Source: Parcubacteria group bacterium (lineage in GTDB: Bacteria > Patescibacteriota > Minisyncoccia > Phycocordibacterales > 21-14-all-47-15). From it: 64,000 bases of DNA. The notes below the pieces were generated by a model that saw nothing but the letters and a program-made list of their open reading frames with translations, ran no database searches and was not told where the DNA came from. Where the stretch lies: assembly GCA_016181845.1 (NCBI GenBank), contig JACOYO010000005.1:66845-130844 (forward strand), read 5' to 3'. Shown one piece after another: positions 10,976 through 23,807 of this stretch (position 1 is the stretch's first letter; each line of letters starts with the position of its first letter). The position numbers were made by a program, and so were the translations under genes.

Positions 10976-12211
10976 TTAATGTTTCGTAATCAACGATGGT
11001 GATATATTTTTACGCGCTAGTTTCGTTGAACCCAAAGTACGGAGCGACTTCAAAAATGGCTCAAGCTCTGCCGCCGCAACGCACACTACTTTATCCGCCC
11101 CTCCATAATACACGAAAAGCCATCCGTCCTTCACTATCGCGCCGCAGGCATACACGACTCCCGACTTGAATCCTTCGTTCTCATACCATTCATCAGGCTC
11201 TAAAATCGGTTGGCGTGAACGCACGAGCACTTTTGTCGGTTCCTCTAAATCAAGAAGCATCGCCCCAAGTTTGTAACGATTCGGGTCTTTGATATCCATC
11301 GCGTGATATAGCACGAGCCAGCCGTATGCAGTTTTAATCGGCGCGGGACCGACGCCGCGGAGCGCGTTGTCCCACGCATCTTTGTATCCGCCGCCAGGAT
11401 GTTTGCTTTGGATAAATTTCGCGCCGTCAAATGAATCAATATCATCCACATAGTCAATGAGAATGCTCTGTGAGATGCCGTGCAAGATGGCATACTTCCC
11501 GTTTATTTTTTCCGGGAAAAGCACCCAGTTTTTGTGAATTTCTCCCGGAGGTGAAACGAACACCGGCGTCTTCCAACGCCACCGCTCATTCACAAAGTTA
11601 TCAAAGCTGATTGAGGTGAGCGCGATTCTGACCGAACCCCATCCGTCAAATGAAGTGTAGAGCATAAACACTCTGTCGCCGAGCAATGTCAATCGCGGGT
11701 CCTCGCTTCCGCCGTTCCATCCTCCTCCCGACCCATACAATACCGGCATGGTCATATGTGATTTCTCTCTCCCCAAAAAACCTTGCGCAAATGCCGGCGA
11801 TTTCCCGCGAATATCAATGGTCACCCCATCAGAACTTCCGGCGTAGCCAAACACCGACACGTCGCCTTCCCCGATTGCCCGATAGATTAGATGCACCTTA
11901 CCGCCGCCATACACCGCGCTTGGATTAAAAGTCGCTTTTGATTCCCATGTCCTGTGCGCAACTGGACTAATAATCGGATTTGAAGACGCCCTTACCAGAG
12001 CCACTACATTCGTGGTTTTGCTTTTTTTTCTGATTGTTTTTTTGGACTTTCTTTTCTGCGTCTTTTTTAAAAGAGGAGCCGCACGCTTGACGCGCGTTTT
12101 TTGTTTCTTGCGTATCGCAATCTTTTTTTTGATGGTTTTTTTCTTTTTTGATTTAGACGCGGCCATAATTATCTTTGATGTGGGCAATACAGTTCTCATC
12201 AAAACCGCCAC
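10976..12211 (-). CDS. GH130-family glycoside phosphorylase/glycosidase with ~65-aa lysine-rich N-terminal tail
   Basis: 411 aa; WESKATFNPSAV...GSEDPRLT GH130 motifs; N-terminus is KKKKTIKKKIAIRKKQKTRVKR... Confidence 0.7.
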   Translation of the reverse strand: MAVLMRTVLPTSKIIMAASKSKKKKTIKKKIAIRKKQKTRVKRAAPLLKKTQKRKSKKTIRKKSKTTNVVALVRASSNPIISPVAHRTWESKATFNPSAVYGGGKVHLIYRAIGEGDVSVFGYAGSSDGVTIDIRGKSPAFAQGFLGREKSHMTMPVLYGSGGGWNGGSEDPRLTLLGDRVFMLYTSFDGWGSVRIALTSISFDNFVNERWRWKTPVFVSPPGEIHKNWVLFPEKINGKYAILHGISQSILIDYVDDIDSFDGAKFIQSKHPGGGYKDAWDNALRGVGPAPIKTAYGWLVLYHAMDIKDPNRYKLGAMLLDLEEPTKVLVRSRQPILEPDEWYENEGFKSGVVYACGAIVKDGWLFVYYGGADKVVCVAAAELEPFLKSLRTLGSTKLARKNISPSLITKH

Positions 12212-12309: not shown

Positions 12310-13104
12310 TCATAATTCCAATAAGACGTCCGGCATCTTATTTGAAAGAATCTGACGGATAATATCTTTTGTTTCCGCAATTCCCTCTTTTTCTACCGAC
12401 TGATACAAGACGCCAAGCGATATGACAGACGCATCATTTCCGCCATGGAAAAGCGCGTCGCCCACGTAAAATACCTGCTTCGGCTCATATCGTAAACGAC
12501 GCATAAGTTTTTTAATTCCATACGCTTTATCAATTCCCTTTCTGGTAATATCAATGGAAGTCGCGCCGCCTATGCTTATGGAAAAATCGGGGAGTTCCGC
12601 GCGGAGCTCCCGCGCGAGTACGATTCGTTTCGCATGGTCGGGGTCCCACTTTTCTTTGAGCGAGAGCGGCGCCTCGCTCCCCAATCCTGAAAAAGTAATC
12701 TGTGTATCGCGGTCTTCAATAAGCACGCCGTACACTTTTTCCGGTTTTTTGAAATTTGTTTTTTTAAACGCCTGCTCAAGCGCCTCAAAAATTTTTTTCT
12801 TTTCCGCATCGGTAAATGCCACGCGGTAGACGCTCACCCATGCGTTATCTTTGTATTCATATAAACTCGCCCCATTCGTCGGCAGTAAAAAAAGATTTTT
12901 GAATGCTTCTGGCGGACATGTAAGCCCTCTTAAAAACTGCGTTTCAAATTGCGTGAACGCGGCGCCCGATATCACGGCGACTTTCTTTATCCTGAGTAGC
13001 GCGCACAAAAGCGCCGACATATCGGGGTCAAGCGGCATTTTGCTTTCCGTCAATGTCTTATCCAAATCAAAGATGATAATATCGGCGGTATCCTCGTGTT
13101 TCAT
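12310..13104 (-). CDS. HAD-IIB hydrolase, eukaryotic-type phosphomannomutase-like
   Basis: IIFDLDKTLT (DxD motif I) and FVGDALFHGGNDASV (PMM-like motif IV, GGND). Confidence 0.65.
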   Translation of the reverse strand: MKHEDTADIIIFDLDKTLTESKMPLDPDMSALLCALLRIKKVAVISGAAFTQFETQFLRGLTCPPEAFKNLFLLPTNGASLYEYKDNAWVSVYRVAFTDAEKKKIFEALEQAFKKTNFKKPEKVYGVLIEDRDTQITFSGLGSEAPLSLKEKWDPDHAKRIVLARELRAELPDFSISIGGATSIDITRKGIDKAYGIKKLMRRLRYEPKQVFYVGDALFHGGNDASVISLGVLYQSVEKEGIAETKDIIRQILSNKMPDVLLEL

Positions 13105-13124
13105 TATTCCTAATTATACATCAG

Positions 13125-13277
13125 TTATATTTTTCTAGTATCCGCCCAAAGAAAAATAACTCCTAGGGCTAAAAAGAGCCCTGCTTCAAACCAATTATGT
13201 TTTTGGAGCGCCTCAATAAGCGCAATACCAAAGAAAATTATAAAAACGGCCAGATTTGTGAACGGCGGTAGGTTCAT
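13125..13277 (-). CDS. possible small membrane protein (50 aa)
   Basis: Hydrophobic ORF MNLPPFTNLAVFIIFFGIALIEAL...; the N-terminal part of the longer track ORF is discounted. Confidence 0.3.
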   Translation of the reverse strand: MNLPPFTNLAVFIIFFGIALIEALQKHNWFEAGLFLALGVIFLWADTRKI

Positions 13278-13568
13278 GGGTTTATTATAACAGTTGCCAT
13301 AGTCGCCCGCGCCGAAGGCGCGTGCTTCTTCCCGCCTTTCGGATTCGGAAGTTTCTTTCTGCGGAGACGATCTCCGCAAATTTTAACCAAAAAAGTGGTT
13401 CAAATTCAAGGATATTGATAAAAGCATACAGGAATTGATGGCTATGTTCAAGCAACACCGAATAATGGTGTCATGTACCATTTATAATATGCTCACAACA
13501 TGAGGCGTGGATAATAAAGAAAGGTACCTGACACCATTACCCCCTGTGGATAAATAAAACTTGCATAT

Positions 13569-13605
13569 TCCGTACATATCCTGTAACATACGGAGTATGT
13601 ACGGA
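13569..13605. promoter_or_regulatory. nested palindrome tccgtacata...tatgtacgga in an AT-rich leader; candidate operator for the RHH-domain protein
   Basis: Perfect 10-bp inverted repeat with inner palindrome acatacggagtatgt, about 40 bp upstream of the 13646 start. Confidence 0.35.
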
Positions 13606-13645
13606 CAATCTGTACAAAATTATCAAATAATAACCAAAATTAATT

Positions 13646-14317
13646 ATGGATAATAAAACTATTCGTTTTGAAATGAGAATTGATCCAGCACTGATTGTTC
13701 AAATAGATGGGTGGGCAAAAAAACGTGAGATCCCCCGCTCCGAAGCCGTAAGAGCATTAATTTCAAGGGGGCTGGGAATGGATATTAGTAAGGGAGAAAA
13801 ACTTATTCTCTCAACCTTAAGTAATATTGCGAACGAGTTGAAGTTAGAAAATACGAAAAGAGAAATCGATCTCATTGTAAAAGCACTATTTCACGGTAAA
13901 TCGTGGGCAATAGACTGGGAACATGAGTGGGTCAACACAGATGATGGACCTTATAAATATGTCGAAGAAACTATTAACATTCTTAGTATGTGGGATTATC
14001 TCTCACATATATACAAAAAATTACCTAAAAAAGATCGCGAAATGGTTGATGGCGCCTGTTCTTTTATGAAATGGGGAAAATTCCCAGGCTTTGATGGTAA
14101 TAACGAGCCACATTTTGGTATTGCCCGCTTTCTTATAGAAGACATGAAAAGATTTACCAACTTCGATCCCCAAAAAATTAATTCTCACTTTCCTGTAGTG
14201 GACAACTATCTGAGCATGTATTCAGAGTTCGATAAGCAACATTATAAAAATAGAAAACCCATCGGAGTGAGCGAATTAATAACCATTACAAAAAAATTCG
14301 AGATTTCTAACAATTAA
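13646..14317 (+). CDS. fusion of N-terminal ribbon-helix-helix (CopG-like) domain with a YfbU-family (UPF0304) domain
   Basis: N-terminus RFEMRIDPALIVQIDGWAKKREIPRSEAVRALISRGL is RHH-like; the C-terminus aligns by eye to E. coli YfbU (LILS...EET.I.I..M; G.FDG...G..RF; FD....SHFP blocks). Confidence 0.55.
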   Translation: MDNKTIRFEMRIDPALIVQIDGWAKKREIPRSEAVRALISRGLGMDISKGEKLILSTLSNIANELKLENTKREIDLIVKALFHGKSWAIDWEHEWVNTDDGPYKYVEETINILSMWDYLSHIYKKLPKKDREMVDGACSFMKWGKFPGFDGNNEPHFGIARFLIEDMKRFTNFDPQKINSHFPVVDNYLSMYSEFDKQHYKNRKPIGVSELITITKKFEISNN

Positions 14318-14958
14318 CTCGCTATTTCAAAAATCTTTCTTACTAATCCTGTCCGCGCATAAAACGCACGAGTAATAGGGCGACGCTCACCAGTTCGCGG
14401 ATTGATTCCGCCTGTTCCTTTTGTACGTGCCTGTATCCATTTGCCGTCTTTCCCAGTGAGAGCATCAAATCCTTCTTTGATCAATTTTGCGCGAATAAAA
14501 TCGTAGTCCGCTTTTATTTCCTTTATCAGCTCGTCATCCTCTGCAAAATCCAAACTCGTTACTTCCAAGAGCTTCGCGTTTTTTGCGTTTTGTCCGTTCC
14601 ACTCAACCGCACAGAAAACAATGGCTTTCAATTTAGCCCAAGCATGGCTCTCAAAAAAATCATGCTGTTTCAACTCTGCGGGATTGATCATTGTGATCGC
14701 CATTGTTTCTTTTGGCACAAGCTTGCCTTTTACTTTGTGAAAAGCAACTGACTTCAATTCATAAGTCAGTCCATTCGGTGCTTTTGATACATTATTTTGG
14801 AGCCCTGCTAAGCGTTCCAAAACAAGACCTTTCCAACCTTTGTTTTGCTTTCCAGTTTCGTATGTCGTAATGCCGTACTTTAAAGCCAGTGTTCGCAAAT
14901 CTTGCCCAATATACTTTTTTAAATTTTTTATCGCAATAGCGCGGGTTATGATTTTCAT
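14314..14958 (-). CDS. MutH/Sau3AI-family endonuclease (putative GATC-specific restriction endonuclease or nicking enzyme)
   Basis: KGWKGLVLERLAG, GLTYELKSV (E-x-K catalytic motif) and the C-terminal block WIQARTKG...ITRAFYARTGLVRKIF match remembered MutH blocks KGWIGVLLEIWLG, GVELKTIP, YLQIRPKA...LPRGFYLKKNF. Confidence 0.6.
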   Translation of the reverse strand: MKIITRAIAIKNLKKYIGQDLRTLALKYGITTYETGKQNKGWKGLVLERLAGLQNNVSKAPNGLTYELKSVAFHKVKGKLVPKETMAITMINPAELKQHDFFESHAWAKLKAIVFCAVEWNGQNAKNAKLLEVTSLDFAEDDELIKEIKADYDFIRAKLIKEGFDALTGKDGKWIQARTKGTGGINPRTGERRPITRAFYARTGLVRKIFEIAS

Positions 14959-15767
14959 ACTTTTGCTTTTTTATTTTTTAAATTTCGATCCAATTCCTCG
15001 AACCGCTTTATTGATATATCTAAAAACTTTTTTTCAAGATCAACCCCAATAAAATTTCTGCCAAATAAATGTGCGACAATCCCCGTCGTAGAACTTCCAG
15101 TGAACGGATCAATTATTAAATCACCTTTGTTTGTACTAGCAAGAACAATTCTTTTCAGCAAGTCCTCGGGTTTTTGCGTTGGATGTTTCCCAAATTTTTT
15201 TTCTATTGTTTTTGGAGTTCCTATTGACCAAACCGAACGCATTTGAAGCCCGGGCTTTTTTAATGCATCCTCTGGCCAAGTGCCATTTTTCATTAAATCA
15301 TAATTGAAAATATGTTTTGCTTTCTTGTCTTTTTTCGCCCAAACAAGTGTTTCGTGGCTTGCGGTGAAAAAACGGCAACTTAAATTTGGCGATGCGTTCG
15401 GTTTGAACCAAGCAACATCATTGAGAACATGAAATCCAGCAACCTGAAGCGCGAAGCCACATTGATAAATTGAGTGATAAGTTCCACTAATCCAAATTGT
15501 TCCACTTGGTTTCAGGACACGCCTAACTGCTTGTATCCAAGCAAGATGAAATTCAAAATCTTTTTTCAGCCCGTTACTTTTATCCCACGCTCCTTTATTA
15601 ACACTTACTCTCTGTCCAGCGTGGACAGTGAAGCCTCCATTTGAAAGCAAATACGGCGGATCCGCAAAAATCATATCAACCGAATTTTCAGGAAGCTCTC
15701 CTAACAAATTCAAACAGTCCGCTTGGTAAAGTTTAAACTTCGGTTTTTCGTAATATGGTTTTTGCAT
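14955..15767 (-). CDS. DNA N6-adenine/N4-cytosine methyltransferase, beta class (motif IV DPPY precedes motif I)
   Basis: IFADPPY near the N-terminus, DPFTGSSTTG near the C-terminus; 4-nt overlap with the endonuclease gene. Confidence 0.85.
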   Translation of the reverse strand: MQKPYYEKPKFKLYQADCLNLLGELPENSVDMIFADPPYLLSNGGFTVHAGQRVSVNKGAWDKSNGLKKDFEFHLAWIQAVRRVLKPSGTIWISGTYHSIYQCGFALQVAGFHVLNDVAWFKPNASPNLSCRFFTASHETLVWAKKDKKAKHIFNYDLMKNGTWPEDALKKPGLQMRSVWSIGTPKTIEKKFGKHPTQKPEDLLKRIVLASTNKGDLIIDPFTGSSTTGIVAHLFGRNFIGVDLEKKFLDISIKRFEELDRNLKNKKAKV

Positions 15768-15872
15768 AAAACTTTTTTCAATTCAAAAAATTAAAAACTT
15801 GACCGAATCCCTCCTCGCGTCAATAGACGCCACTTTTGAATAACTATGGAAACGCTATTCAAAAATGTCGTT

Positions 15873-15963
15873 ACGGAGAGGGAGGGATTCGAACCCTCGA
15901 TGAGGTTTTAAGGCCCCATAGCGGATTAGCAATCCGCCGCTTTCAGCCGCTCAGCCACCTCTC
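15873..15963 (-). tRNA. tRNA-Ser (anticodon GCU), 91 nt with long variable arm
   Basis: Manual fold: acceptor GGAGAGG/CCUCUCC, anticodon loop UUGCUAA, long variable arm, T-arm GAGGG-UUCGAAU-CCCUC. The 3' trailer contains GGAGGGAUUCGG, complementary to the tRNA 3' end, followed by a U-run (terminator). Confidence 0.85.
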
Positions 15964-15969
15964 CAAATG

Positions 15970-16218
15970 TTATTGTGTATTTTTTAAAAGATATTTAATT
16001 CGCTCTCTGCCTTTCCCTGATTTCAAAAATTTTTCTTCTATTTTCGCATCTTTTTCAGAAATAAATGCTTCGTAATAAATTAATTTCCATGGCCCATTAT
16101 TTCTCGTGAAAATAGATTTCCCTAAATTGTGTTCTTTTATCCTTCTTTTTAAGTCATTGGTAAAACCCTTATACAGTTTGTTATTCCTAACGCTTTTTAA
16201 TATATACACATAATACAT
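15970..16218 (-). CDS. GIY-YIG nuclease superfamily protein (UPF0213/YhbQ-like, 82 aa)
   Basis: MYYVYILKS...NKLYKGFTNDLKRRIKEHN is a GIY-YIG core resembling YhbQ; the first 19 codons of the track ORF (15970..16275) are discounted because they read through a tRNA fragment. Confidence 0.75.
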   Translation of the reverse strand: MYYVYILKSVRNNKLYKGFTNDLKRRIKEHNLGKSIFTRNNGPWKLIYYEAFISEKDAKIEEKFLKSGKGRERIKYLLKNTQ

Positions 16219-16261
16219 AGTATTGTCGCTCCCAGCCCTAGGCTGGTCGGCCCCGGGCCGA

Positions 16262-16275
16262 AGCCACCTCTCCAT
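16262..16275. repeat. 14-nt direct repeat (aagccacctctcca) of the 5' end of tRNA-Ser, on the far side of the GIY-YIG gene
   Basis: Exact match to 15950-15963; the minus-strand sequence GGAGAGGUGGCUU is followed by GC-rich palindromes that are not tRNA-like. Confidence 0.55.
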
Positions 16276-16364
16276 TATATATATGCTACAAAAACTTTAG
16301 TAATCACATAGTAGCCAATTTTTGCGAAAAAACCAACTATCTTTCTTTTCGTGTTCAAAAAAAT

Positions 16365-16392
16365 AAAGGGGCAATTAACAAATTGCCCCTTT
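16365..16392 (-). terminator. rho-independent terminator downstream of the por operon (ggggcaatttgttaattgcccc + U-run on minus strand)
   Basis: Hairpin followed by a T-run on the minus strand. Confidence 0.5.
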
Positions 16393-16397
16393 TTGCT

Positions 16398-16862
16398 TCA
16401 CAAGCCGAGTCCTTTTTCAAACGCATTCTGATTCATGAGCCGCATCCGAGGTGCCTTGCATTCAGATTCAATCGCCGCGCACACTGCTTCTTTTGATAGC
16501 GGCACGTATGTTCGCGCTACTAGCATGCCGAGCAACACGTATCCACGCGCATTTTCCAACATGTGCCGATTTGCTTCTGATGGAATTGAGAGATACCACG
16601 TTTCTTCGCGCGTGCGAAGCGTCGCCCAAGAAGCACATATATCAATGCCGACATCGGGCTTCCATTCCACTACCGGATTGCACGGCATATCAGAGACAAC
16701 CAAATGACAGTTTGAGACACCACCCCTAACTGCCGTGTCATACTCGGGCGCCAGCGCAACATAACACGAAGGATTTTCTGCCATTATTGCACGACAAATA
16801 ATCGCTCCCAATGTATGCACTCCAAACCCGCCTTTCCCAAAAATAATCATTGAGAGTTCCAT
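16398..16862 (-). CDS. 2-oxoacid:ferredoxin oxidoreductase gamma subunit
   Basis: MELSMIIFGKGGFGVHTLG gamma-subunit signature; start at ATG 16862 directly after the korAB stop. Confidence 0.8.
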   Translation of the reverse strand: MELSMIIFGKGGFGVHTLGAIICRAIMAENPSCYVALAPEYDTAVRGGVSNCHLVVSDMPCNPVVEWKPDVGIDICASWATLRTREETWYLSIPSEANRHMLENARGYVLLGMLVARTYVPLSKEAVCAAIESECKAPRMRLMNQNAFEKGLGL

Positions 16863-22221: not shown

Positions 22222-23807
22222 CTCAATATAAGGTTGATTTTCAAAAAAATTCTAATTTGAATTAAAGCGTAAAAACATATTTTTGTCAAACCATCCACTT
22301 GCCCTACCATAAACCATGGGTTAGTATTTGAAGTACGCCAACAAAAAACCGCTCTTAGCTCAGTTGGTAGAGCGCTCGTCTTATACACGAGTGGTCCCAG
22401 GTTCGAGTCCTGGAGGGCGGATTCGTAACAAAGTGGAGAATCTGACCGAGCAAAGCGCCTGCGCGCTTTGCGGACAGGACGAGAAAAGGTTCTCCCATAT
22501 TTTTGAGGAGCATTGCTCCGAAAAAATGGGAAACCTGTACTGAACATGTAAGGTTCGAGTCCTGGAGGGCGGACATACCGCAGAGCTTCAATCGGGCTTT
22601 TCTTCGCGGCGGTGCGCGCCGGATAGTAGCCGAAGACGATGCCCACAAGCGCCGCAACACCCAATCCCAAAAATATTGCAAAAAACTGAAAACTAAATTG
22701 CCAATCCAGTCCGACAATCTGCGTGAGAATAATTGAGATGCCAAATGAAATTGTCGTACCGAGCGCAATCCCAACAATCCCACCAAGCAATGTGAGTATC
22801 GTCGCTTCAAGCAAAAACTGCGACAAAATATCTTTTTCGCGCGCGCCGATTGCTTTGCGCAATCCGATTTCACGCGTTCTTTCCGTAACCGACACTAGCA
22901 TGATATTCATGATGCCGATACCGCCGACAATCAAAGATATAGCCGCCATGGCCGTCAAAAAAAGCGTGAGTGTGCTTGTGATAACCCCGAGACGATTTGC
23001 AAGGTCCGCCTGCGTCTCAACAAAAAAGTCGTCTTTGTCGGGGTCGGTAATGTTGTGTGAGTTGCGGAGCGTTGTTTGCACATCGCGAACCGTACGCTCT
23101 ATTGATCCGTCGTTTGCCGCTTCAATGATAAACCTGTGGAAATATTTGATGCCGAAAATATACTGTTGCGCGGTTGTATACGGCACAATTGCCGCTTCAT
23201 CAAAATTGAAAAATGACACCTGCCCTTTTTTCGGCAATATGCCGATAACCCGAAAATTTTTGCCTTTGATTTTAATTTTTTCTCCGAGCGCCGATGCATC
23301 GCCAAACAATTCACTTTTTACTTTTGAGCCGATAATCACAACATCACGCTGACCCTTCACATCATCATAGTTAAAAAAGTTTCCTTCTTTCGGAAAGAGG
23401 TCAAAAATATCTCCTATGAGCGGGGACGCTCCGAAAATAGTCAGCCGATAGGTTTCGCTTCCGTATGCTCCAGTTTCCCCGCCGAATAAAATCGGCATGA
23501 TGCGTGCAAGGGTCGGCACATTCGTTTTTTTCTGCAAGAGCTCAAGGTCGCGTTCTTTCAGCGAATCGGAAAAAATCTGCGCCGCGTCTGCTGGGCCTTT
23601 CGGTTCCCTGCCCGGAATCACAATGATGGTTTTTGAACCAAGCCCCTGCACCTGGCTTACGATAAGCTGTTCGGCTCCTTTGCCCAAAGACATCACAACT
23701 ATAATGGCCGTAATGCCGATGACAATGCCAAGCATCGTGAGTGCCGAGCGCATTTTATTCGTTTTAAGCCCGAGAACGGCTGTTTTGAGAAGATGCGGAA
23801 ACGTCAT
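22218..23807 (-). CDS. ABC transporter permease, MacB/FtsX family; the ORF as it stands is extended ~118 codons beyond the usual C-terminus
   Basis: FtsX domain with 4 TM segments ending ...PARTAAKKSPIEALRYV; codon 413 onward is encoded by the duplicated tRNA 3' end, a 129-bp insert and the antisense of the tRNA gene, with no stop until 22218. Confidence 0.7.
   Translation of the reverse strand: MTFPHLLKTAVLGLKTNKMRSALTMLGIVIGITAIIVVMSLGKGAEQLIVSQVQGLGSKTIIVIPGREPKGPADAAQIFSDSLKERDLELLQKKTNVPTLARIMPILFGGETGAYGSETYRLTIFGASPLIGDIFDLFPKEGNFFNYDDVKGQRDVVIIGSKVKSELFGDASALGEKIKIKGKNFRVIGILPKKGQVSFFNFDEAAIVPYTTAQQYIFGIKYFHRFIIEAANDGSIERTVRDVQTTLRNSHNITDPDKDDFFVETQADLANRLGVITSTLTLFLTAMAAISLIVGGIGIMNIMLVSVTERTREIGLRKAIGAREKDILSQFLLEATILTLLGGIVGIALGTTISFGISIILTQIVGLDWQFSFQFFAIFLGLGVAALVGIVFGYYPARTAAKKSPIEALRYVRPPGLEPYMFSTGFPFFRSNAPQKYGRTFSRPVRKARRRFARSDSPLCYESALQDSNLGPLVYKTSALPTELRAVFCWRTSNTNPWFMVGQVDGLTKICFYALIQIRIFLKINLILR
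22349..22421 (+). tRNA. tRNA with anticodon UAU (would read AUA; tRNA-Ile2-like), 73 nt
   Basis: Manual cloverleaf: acceptor CCGCUCU/AGGGCGG (one G-U), D-arm GCUC/GAGC, anticodon stem CUCGU/ACGAG with loop CUUAUAC, T-arm CCAGG-UUCGAGU-CCUGG, discriminator A. Confidence 0.7.
22551..22573 (+). repeat. 23-nt direct repeat of the tRNA(UAU) 3' end (aggttcgagtcctggagggcgga; original at 22399-22421), 129 bp downstream
   Basis: Exact 23-nt identity ending at the discriminator base; att-core-like arrangement. Confidence 0.7.

Follow-up and report, generated by a model that had tools for sequence, protein, structure and literature searches.

A 2.5-kb block at positions 13361–15872 of a 64,000-nt stretch of a Parcubacteria group bacterium genome (GenBank assembly GCA_016181845.1, contig JACOYO010000005.1, positions 66,845 to 130,844 of the forward strand; here called the window) is, with a probability of roughly 0.7, a small horizontally acquired defence islet that holds two functionally independent units. 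One is a restriction-modification (R-M) operon of a methyltransferase gene and a gene for a MutH/Sau3AI-family endonuclease; the other is a cargo gene for a protein in which a predicted ribbon-helix-helix (RHH) DNA-binding domain is fused to a YfbU domain (RHH-YfbU). The islet is bordered proximally by tRNA-Ser(GCU) and distally by the remnant of a small open reading frame (ORF), which we call X. An initial annotation of the window had described an acquired, AT-rich R-M block and had proposed that RHH-YfbU controls it, an adjacency that would give YfbU its first testable role. We retain the acquired block and the R-M module, and read RHH-YfbU as a separate passenger. Coordinates of the features are collected in Table 1, and loci from other genomes are labelled with L and a number.

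The three ORFs of the block lie where they had first been placed. On the minus strand the order is GIY-YIG nuclease gene, tRNA-Ser(GCU), a 105-nt spacer, methyltransferase gene and nuclease gene, and the 3' end of the tRNA faces the block, as the initial annotation had it. The GC content of the block is 37.7%, compared with 45.7% in the rest of the window, in line with the AT-richness noted earlier. GATC sites set it apart as well: the block contains 12 sites where the host rate predicts 1.7 (about sevenfold more, Poisson P = 3e-7), and GATC is depleted about five-fold outside it (0.21 of expectation) and not at all inside. Because its GC content is low and GATC is not depleted as in the host, the block is compositionally foreign, and the two contrasts with the host agree in supporting horizontal acquisition. 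No direct repeat of the tRNA 3' end (att) was found at the far border, no integrase gene was found in the islet, and a search of positions 13000–16500 against Rfam gave the tRNA alone above threshold. A search with the flanking HAD hydrolase for an allele without the island yielded no such allele, only 1.6–1.9-kb contigs of the same organism.

The methyltransferase and nuclease genes form a two-gene Type II R-M operon, given that they are adjacent and conserved together and that PADLOC models match both products (MTase_II at 324 bits and REase_II, respectively). The two genes overlap by 4 nt (ATGA), as the initial annotation had observed, and this coupling, together with the recurrence of the pair described below, supports the compact R-M module proposed there. 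The methyltransferase scores 193.5 bits with Pfam N6_N4_Mtase (PF01555) and carries FADPPY near residue 35 and DPFTGSSTTG near residue 222; DPPY before FxGxG is the beta-class order, in agreement with the class first assigned. Among solved structures the CcrM catalytic domain is nearest to it (PDB 6pbd, 1.8e-56, 195 bits). The NCBIfam CcrM model gives 242.7 bits against a cut-off of 830, with a match confined to model positions 5–255 (of 350); the protein itself is only 270 residues long. The operon would be transcribed away from the tRNA, methyltransferase first and nuclease second through the ATGA overlap, an order that would let the protective methyltransferase be made before or together with the nuclease. 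Transcription of the operon probably starts from a promoter in the spacer between the tRNA and the methyltransferase gene, unless it continues from the tRNA.

The distribution of the pair was followed in a genome collection that holds one genome per species, in which at least 338 stretches encode a relative of the nuclease; locus counts in this text refer to the best 80 of these (65–87% nuclease identity). In 67 of the 80 the gene immediately preceding that of the nuclease encodes an orthologous methyltransferase, and the loci span many candidate-phyla-radiation phyla as well as Nanoarchaeia, Omnitrophota, Elusimicrobia, Bdellovibrionales and others. The module was AT-richer than its flanks by over 5 points in 28 of 63 loci, and never the reverse. 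At the protein level, homologues of the nuclease fall into more than 2000 clusters; the best 120 have 83–88% identity, and nearly all of these are 214 aa long. A homologue of 55% identity is encoded by a 595-kb uncultured huge phage (LR756511.1, 475766–476365), and the plasmid collection gave no nuclease homologue. The methyltransferase-nuclease pair is hence a conserved mobile module, one of the more widely spread R-M modules in candidate-phyla-radiation bacteria, which reaches DPANN archaea and a huge phage. We found no biochemical characterization of the pair in the literature. As a separate observation, another candidate-phyla-radiation genome (L017–L019, 1–3336) carries the methyltransferase/MutH-like pair about 2 kb from a second R-M cassette made up of a helix-turn-helix (HTH) protein, a methyltransferase, a DpnII-like nuclease (weak match) and another methyltransferase, so that the systems are stacked.

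From its sequence, the nuclease is best described as a MutH/Sau3AI-family enzyme of the PD-(D/E)XK type, with a single domain and the role of a restriction subunit, and as an orthologue of neither MutH nor Sau3AI. The Pfam MutH model (PF02976) gives 37.8 bits against a cut-off of 23, which upholds the family to which the 214-aa protein had been assigned. NCBIfam scores are 56.6 bits for Sau3AI (cut-off 300; the match is to the N-terminal half of the model) and 45.7 bits for MutH (cut-off 243), and the PDB search matches MutH 1azo at 1.5e-5. In an alignment of 39 homologues with E. coli MutH, K40, G41, G44 and Y200 are invariant and N39, W42, R178, K180 and F199 nearly so, and the DNA-contact motifs of MutH (NKGWxG, Q-x-R-x-K-G and (R)AFY) are conserved. 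The enzyme would most likely be monomeric and cut unmethylated sites one strand at a time, like MutH, BcnI and MvaI. A separate candidate, membership of the MvaI/BcnI type (CCWGG/CCSGG), was rejected: Pfam MvaI_BcnI gives 16.2 bits against a cut-off of 25, and the fold search puts BcnI well behind MutH and Sau3AI.

Some features of the nuclease speak against its being an ordinary restriction subunit. Its motif is a variant, P61-N62...E67-x-K69 plus E48, in which N62 aligns with the catalytic D70 of MutH, and the canonical triad (D70, E77, K79) therefore lacks its first Asp. Of the MutH catalytic blocks claimed for the protein, the E-x-K and the contact motifs are present and the block itself is non-canonical. 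The substitution could alter the activity or the cutting mode (nicking, latency). The structural model, whose Foldseek neighbours are MutH (2aor, 2aoq and 1azo, template-modelling score (TM) 0.61–0.64) and then Sau3AI (4pxg), has low confidence (predicted local distance difference test (pLDDT) 59.7) and comes from a shallow alignment at 83–88% identity. It is accordingly conceivable, though we think it quite improbable, that the pair is not a classical double-strand cutter: with Asn for Asp, the enzyme could serve repair, strand discrimination or nicking defence as a methyl-directed nickase or latent nuclease, or could be dead, with the methyltransferase effectively an orphan. Such a role would suit the invariance of N62 across 120 close homologues, the latent nickase activity of MutH and the very high conservation (65–88%) across deeply divergent hosts. 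However, an ATGA-coupled methyltransferase-then-nuclease operon is typical of Type II systems, the distribution is patchy, the module is AT-rich relative to its hosts and it occupies variable defence slots. E48, E67, K69 and E84 are all retained in the alignment with E. coli MutH, and a dead enzyme would be hard to reconcile with the strong purifying selection that the nuclease shows. A motif parser run on 150 listed cluster representatives read 43 as PD and 36 as PN, and left 66 without an assignment. PN thus appears to be a common natural active-site state, found here in tight operons with a methyltransferase, and the pair would be a new member of a known family that carries a natural Asp-to-Asn active site.

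The recognition site of the module is probably GATC, which is favoured because the DNA-contact motifs of MutH/Sau3AI are retained. In the whole window three 4-bp palindromes are strongly under-represented, TCGA (34 versus 191 expected, 0.18), GATC (55 versus 213, 0.26) and GGCC (75 versus 192, 0.39), and this scarcity suggests long exposure to several 4-bp restriction systems. The count of GATC that the initial annotation had recommended gives a divided answer: the host window is depleted, but there is no consistent avoidance across the module-carrying genomes. Over 1.16 Mb from the 80 loci the ratio is 0.74 for GATC and 0.82 for GANTC, so neither is consistently avoided; no other palindrome was consistently avoided in this set either. 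Site avoidance was dropped as a guide to specificity, as it is uninformative over the pooled 1.16 Mb.

Other observations favour recognition of GANTC (HinfI/CcrM-type), which we nevertheless hold to be improbable. The methyltransferase is most similar to CcrM, a GANTC methylase (the 195-bit match above), and GANTC occurs only twice in the 2.5-kb islet, where about 9 sites are expected, and 13–14 times in 12.6 kb of L017–L021, where about 35 are expected, both expectations being from base composition alone; GATC is avoided neither in the islet nor in L017–L021. On the other side stand the conserved contact motifs, and to our knowledge the characterized PF02976 members (MutH, Sau3AI and isoschizomers) bind GATC. 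The islet methyltransferase is without the C-terminal domain of CcrM, and GANTC, at 0.82 overall, falls below 0.5 in just 4 of the 80 loci and is not consistently depleted. R.HinfI, moreover, was classified as a singleton family apart from Sau3AI (PMC2441816). For the same reason R.HinfI was set aside as a possible MutH-family member.

The second unit is the gene for RHH-YfbU, a protein of 223 aa with an RHH domain at roughly residues 5–44 and a YfbU domain at residues 45–211. The C-terminal assignment made initially stands: Pfam YfbU (PF03887) gives 62.9 bits against a cut-off of 25, the YfbU family profile matches PDB 1wpb at 6.4e-18, and the only significant Foldseek neighbours of the AlphaFold model (pLDDT 85.6, from a 45-sequence alignment) are the E. 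coli YfbU structures 4lr3 and 1wpb (probability 1.0, target-normalised TM 0.55). For the N-terminus the RHH assignment is carried by the family and not by the protein's own score. RHH_1 (PF01402) gives this N-terminus alone 16.6–19.1 bits, under the cut-off of 20.5, but among 20 homologous N-termini 16 reach E <= 0.01, with a best value of 1.2e-6. The phage family phrog_4738 (repressor) matches the protein at 1.2e-6, phrog_6084 also matches, and the RHH domain of NikR matches the N-terminus weakly (0.016). The model places helices at residues 14–27 and 31–43 after an extended N-terminus. About 28 of the 45 retrieved homologues have the N-terminal extension, and fusion homologues occur in Parvibaculum and on plasmids of Xanthomonas and Rhizobium, among them WP_015472960 on Xanthomonas citri pXcaw58 and WP_258163152 on Rhizobium pTH2a. 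Four residues, F146, G148, D150 and H181, are invariant in the subfamily, within 'FPGFDGNNE...LNSH', and likely mark a functional site.

Upstream of the gene lies a putative sigma-70-type promoter with the -35 element TTGCAT (13561–13566), a 17-nt spacer and the -10 element TAACAT (13584–13589). Homologous leaders keep the same register, with TTGTAT-17-TATACT in L004, ATGTAT-17-TATTAT in L015 and TTGACG-16-TATAAT in L001. The initial annotation had reported a nested perfect palindrome in this leader. The outer 10-nt arms (TCCGTACATA / TATGTACGGA) are indeed perfect, but the full 17-nt arms are 82% complementary; the element itself is a likely regulatory site, conserved with the closer homologues. 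It has four CGTA/TACG half-sites and reaches from the promoter spacer across the -10 element into the start region. The same four-half-site design, with several invariant positions, stands upstream of the closer homologues (L004/L006, L015/L016, L001 and L007) in unrelated contexts, with a -35-like hexamer just before the first half-site and a -10-like hexamer at the dyad centre. The most economical reading is that the palindrome is the predicted binding site of the RHH domain, with RHH dimers over the promoter leading to autorepression, because the closest relatives keep the same palindrome over their own promoters. The gene would then be a self-repressing single-gene cassette whose RHH domain binds across its own -35 and -10 elements; the conservation of the operator is observed, the binding is inferred. 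A point against this is that the more distant homologues L008, L010, L014 and L023 lack a clear copy of the palindrome.

Control of the R-M operon by RHH-YfbU, which the initial annotation had suggested, is highly improbable. RHH-YfbU would have to act as an analogue of controller (C) proteins, timing or limiting R-M expression by way of the leader palindrome or by transcription that runs convergently into the nuclease gene. The protein does have a predicted DNA-binding domain, the genes are adjacent, and their 3' ends overlap by 4 nt, such that transcription of one could interfere with the other. The two genes are not transcribed divergently, as had been stated, but convergently, with stop codons that overlap at 14314–14317, an orientation unlike that of known C genes. 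The exact half-site TCCGTACATA occurs in the 64-kb window only at 13569 and 13596, and no half-site lies upstream of the methyltransferase or the nuclease gene, the spacer between the tRNA and the methyltransferase gene included. The operator is thus confined to RHH-YfbU's own promoter, and it travels with the closest YfbU genes in contexts that lack the module.

Co-occurrence points the same way. None of the 80 loci that carry the orthologous module has a YfbU homologue within +/-10 kb. We also examined about ten independent contexts of RHH-YfbU homologues, the neighbourhood analysis that had been suggested as a check for R-M linkage, and none has a methyltransferase/MutH-like module or any conserved R-M partner; the only restriction enzyme gene nearby is an unrelated Eco57I-type gene about 4 kb away in L010. 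Because each partner is without the other in these two sets, the adjacency in the window is a one-off juxtaposition, and sister islets fill the same slot with unrelated defence genes. What the contexts hold instead is an island with ThsB-TIR, RhuM and a recombinase; a cluster of an HTH protein, a 397-aa protein and DUF6804 beside a serine recombinase; a moron (L007, 6001–6690) between the portal and S49 protease genes of the head module of a lambda-like prophage, with an AbiEi/AbiEii pair about 4 kb downstream; a HipA toxin locus; an integrase beside phage capsid genes (L010); a cluster of a resolvase, a retron-type reverse transcriptase and a transposase; and a conjugative plasmid where the gene adjoins RelE/ParE. 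The attractive link between YfbU and R-M is thereby corrected: the neighbouring R-M system does not explain YfbU.

The place of RHH-YfbU in the islet appears to be a variable position in a recurrent arrangement. In 8 of the 80 loci a tRNA-Ser (GCU, GGA, CGA or UGA) lies directly upstream of the methyltransferase gene, at a distance of 23–74 nt, and the layout of tRNA-Ser, methyltransferase, nuclease, cargo and X recurs in L046, L054, L058, L064 and L070. The cargo differs from locus to locus: a RelA/SpoT-domain protein in L058 (PADLOC candidate system PDC-S33, 413 bits), an OLD/GajA/AriA-like ATPase in L064, a 169-aa protein in L046 and three small ORFs in L054. After the cargo follows a conserved segment of about 120 nt, whose copy in the window (13361–13478) has 80–88% DNA identity to the segments downstream of the nuclease gene in L046, L054 and L064. 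This segment is coding, because its differences are biased to the third codon position (47/23/101 by codon position), and X is a conserved peptide of about 55 aa that reads into the islet. Its conserved part is GGDDVRKFEPKKWLKFKDIDKSIQELRAIFKVHPEWFEVPKPKS.KG.NAVDYSI*, and the fuller peptide consensus is …RKFEPKKWLKFKDIDKSIQELRAIFKVHPEWFE.PKPKS.KG.NAVDYSI*. X has 166 homologous clusters, the named ones all from candidate-phyla-radiation bacteria, and the peptide gave no Pfam or NCBIfam match. It often has no canonical start codon and always reads into a variable R-M or defence cassette. In the window it is a pseudogene with an in-frame TAA (about 13384–13386) and a diverged C-terminal half. In L106 X and tRNA-Ser(CGA) flank a different, TaqI-type R-M system, and in L107 X borders another methyltransferase-centred cassette, with no tRNA found in that locus. 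On these comparisons the islet appears as one instance of a recurrent small Parcubacteria defence slot, in whose variable cargo position RHH-YfbU would sit as a stand-alone gene, and the slot from tRNA-Ser to X suggests a simple route to mining defence genes in tiny genomes.

Two observations concern the borders of the islet. Between the X remnant and the RHH-YfbU promoter lies an inverted repeat whose 20-nt arms are 90% complementary and enclose a 37-nt loop; it has no Rfam match. At the other end, the GIY-YIG gene stands immediately 5' of tRNA-Ser, with ATG at 16218 as its likely true start. A second copy of the tRNA's initial 13 nt (TGGAGAGGTGGCT) lies at 16262–16274 and heads a GC-rich leader of 42 nt (16235–16276). 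L058 has this leader at 88% identity, and there too tRNA-Ser(GCU) follows a GIY-YIG gene, one of 78% identity; the corresponding position in L106 is occupied by a LAGLIDADG-like gene. The GIY-YIG gene and its leader may be a homing-type element associated with tRNA-Ser.

As to what RHH-YfbU does, it is most likely, on our analysis, a Kamadhenu-like defence protein with an added DNA-binding domain. Kamadhenu, described in 2024, is a 180-aa YfbU-domain protein and a validated single-gene abortive-infection system on a lactococcal plasmid, where its gene is co-located with other defence systems (PMC11381338), and it has been covered in a review (PMC13064643). Phage mutants that escape it, reported in 2025, were mapped to G22 in a single-strand annealing protein of the Sak-like kind (PMC12184496). 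For no YfbU-family protein other than Kamadhenu did we find a demonstrated function in the literature (PMC11381338). The expectation that adjacency to an R-M module would give YfbU its first testable role is therefore overtaken, as Kamadhenu has already been validated as anti-phage (PMC11381338, PMC12184496). The description of Kamadhenu as a single-gene YfbU-domain protein fits RHH-YfbU, which has the RHH domain in addition. The most likely role of RHH-YfbU would thus be that of an anti-phage sensor or effector that answers phage recombination or replication.

Not everything agrees with a defence role. The likeness to Kamadhenu is at the level of the domain family only, and the plasmid search found no RHH-YfbU match on any lactococcal plasmid at E <= 1e-3. 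The Parvibaculum homologue (L011–L013) lies among housekeeping genes, between trpS and murJ, a position that also fits a plain regulator. RHH-YfbU could then be an ordinary transcription factor that represses itself and responds through its YfbU domain to a ligand or stress, or a fused antitoxin-toxin-like addiction gene that stabilises mobile elements, alternatives that we find unlikely but consider seriously. The one link made for the chromosomal YfbU of E. coli is to the death of cells whose DNA has been damaged (PMC2646832), the homologues often have toxin-antitoxin pairs as neighbours, and no PADLOC model matches RHH-YfbU. However, one YfbU-domain protein alone gives abortive-infection resistance (PMC11381338), most contexts of the homologues are prophages, plasmids and defence clusters, and the slot that holds RHH-YfbU carries defence genes in sister islets. 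The Kamadhenu-like reading is the one that we retain.

Beyond this we put forward, tentatively and as a possibility only, that RHH-YfbU proteins are a widespread, undescribed DNA-binding subclass of Kamadhenu-type immunity, found on proteobacterial plasmids, in prophages and in candidate-phyla-radiation bacteria. The YfbU domain would sense a cue of phage recombination or replication, for example a single-strand annealing protein, and would then switch the hold of the RHH domain on its operator or on phage DNA, coupling sensing to expression or growth arrest. Separately, and just as tentatively, the interval from X to tRNA-Ser would be a recurrent Parcubacteria hotspot that collects R-M and defence cargo. 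The RHH-fused subclass offers a handle on the Kamadhenu mechanism, with a defined DNA site, a promoter and cultivable hosts (Xanthomonas and Parvibaculum).

Table 1 Features of the islet and its borders (window positions), followed by copies of ORF X in other loci (positions within each locus).
Feature	Positions	Strand	Evidence or detail
ORF X, degenerate remnant (distal border)	13361..13460	+	DNA identity, nhmmer, alignment
Inverted repeat	13463..13539	no strand	arms 13463-13482 / 13520-13539
Putative RHH-YfbU promoter	13561..13589	+	read from sequence; homologous leaders share register
Operator-like palindrome	13569..13605	no strand	repeat analysis; homologue leaders
RHH-YfbU fusion gene, 223 aa	13646..14317	+	Pfam, PHROG, AlphaFold/Foldseek
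MutH/Sau3AI-family endonuclease gene, 214 aa	14314..14958	-	Pfam, NCBIfam, PDB, PADLOC
Beta-class methyltransferase gene, 270 aa	14955..15767	-	Pfam, NCBIfam, PDB, PADLOC
Spacer, 105 nt, tRNA-Ser 3' end to methyltransferase start	15768..15872	-	
tRNA-Ser(GCU)	15873..15965	-	ARAGORN; Rfam tRNA 61.3 bits
GIY-YIG nuclease gene	15970-16275	-	Pfam 58.7 bits
ORF X copy, L046	11163-11327		
ORF X copy, L054	11535-11699		
ORF X copy, L064	3805-3972		
ORF X copy, L063	6864-7028		
ORF X copy, L106	5001-5213		
ORF X copy, L107	5001-5183		

Elsewhere in the window, a tRNA-Ile with anticodon TAT (UAU) lies at 22349–22421 on the plus strand. Such a tRNA is seldom met in bacteria: in most of them AUA is decoded by a CAU tRNA modified with lysidine. 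A GH130 protein (mannoside phosphorylase family) is encoded at 10976–12211 on the minus strand and carries about 60 extra, extremely lysine-rich residues at its N-terminus (…SKSKKKKTIKKKIAIRKKQKTRVKR…).

Set beside known systems, each part of the islet has a close counterpart from which it departs. The nuclease shares with MutH and Sau3AI the E-x-K and the contact motifs of the N-arm (KGWxG) and the C-arm (R-x-K / FY), probably also the PD-(D/E)XK MutH fold, and with MutH, BcnI and MvaI a single domain of about 210 aa. Unlike MutH, it has Asn for the first catalytic Asp, and unlike mutH its gene is coupled in an operon to that of its methyltransferase. The second (effector) domain of Sau3AI is missing, and the partner is a beta-class amino-methyltransferase, whereas Sau3AI pairs with a C5-cytosine methyltransferase. 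The methyltransferase itself resembles the CcrM / M.HinfI type in its catalytic domain and motif order, but at 270 aa it has no counterpart of the C-terminal DNA-binding domain of CcrM, and it is coupled to a nuclease gene, unlike the orphan CcrM. As in tRNA-linked defence islands, variable defence cargo that is AT-richer than the host lies between a tRNA and a conserved marker; the islet differs in being only 2.5 kb long, in having no detected integrase or att repeat and in having the 55-aa ORF X as its far border.

C proteins are Xre-type helix-turn-helix proteins of about 80–100 aa, co-oriented and co-conserved with the nuclease gene. RHH-YfbU has in common with them a predicted DNA-binding domain, probable autoregulation by a palindromic operator and an R-M neighbour, but it has a predicted RHH fold, an extra 170-aa domain and a convergent gene, and it co-occurs with the orthologous module in 0 of 80 loci. 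E. coli YfbU (UPF0304; 1wpb, 4lr3) shares its fold and Pfam family and is without the DNA-binding domain; identity is about 17–20%, RHH-YfbU scores 47.4 bits against the NCBIfam equivalog cut-off of 90, and H181, in the 'LNSH' that is invariant in the RHH-YfbU subfamily, is Gln in E. coli YfbU. With Kamadhenu it shares a single gene, the YfbU domain, a setting in mobile DNA and other defence systems nearby. Kamadhenu has the YfbU domain only, in 180 aa and in a Firmicute host; RHH-YfbU, from Parcubacteria, has in addition the RHH domain and, across the promoter of its gene, a palindromic operator that is conserved, and would be a new variant within a recently validated family.

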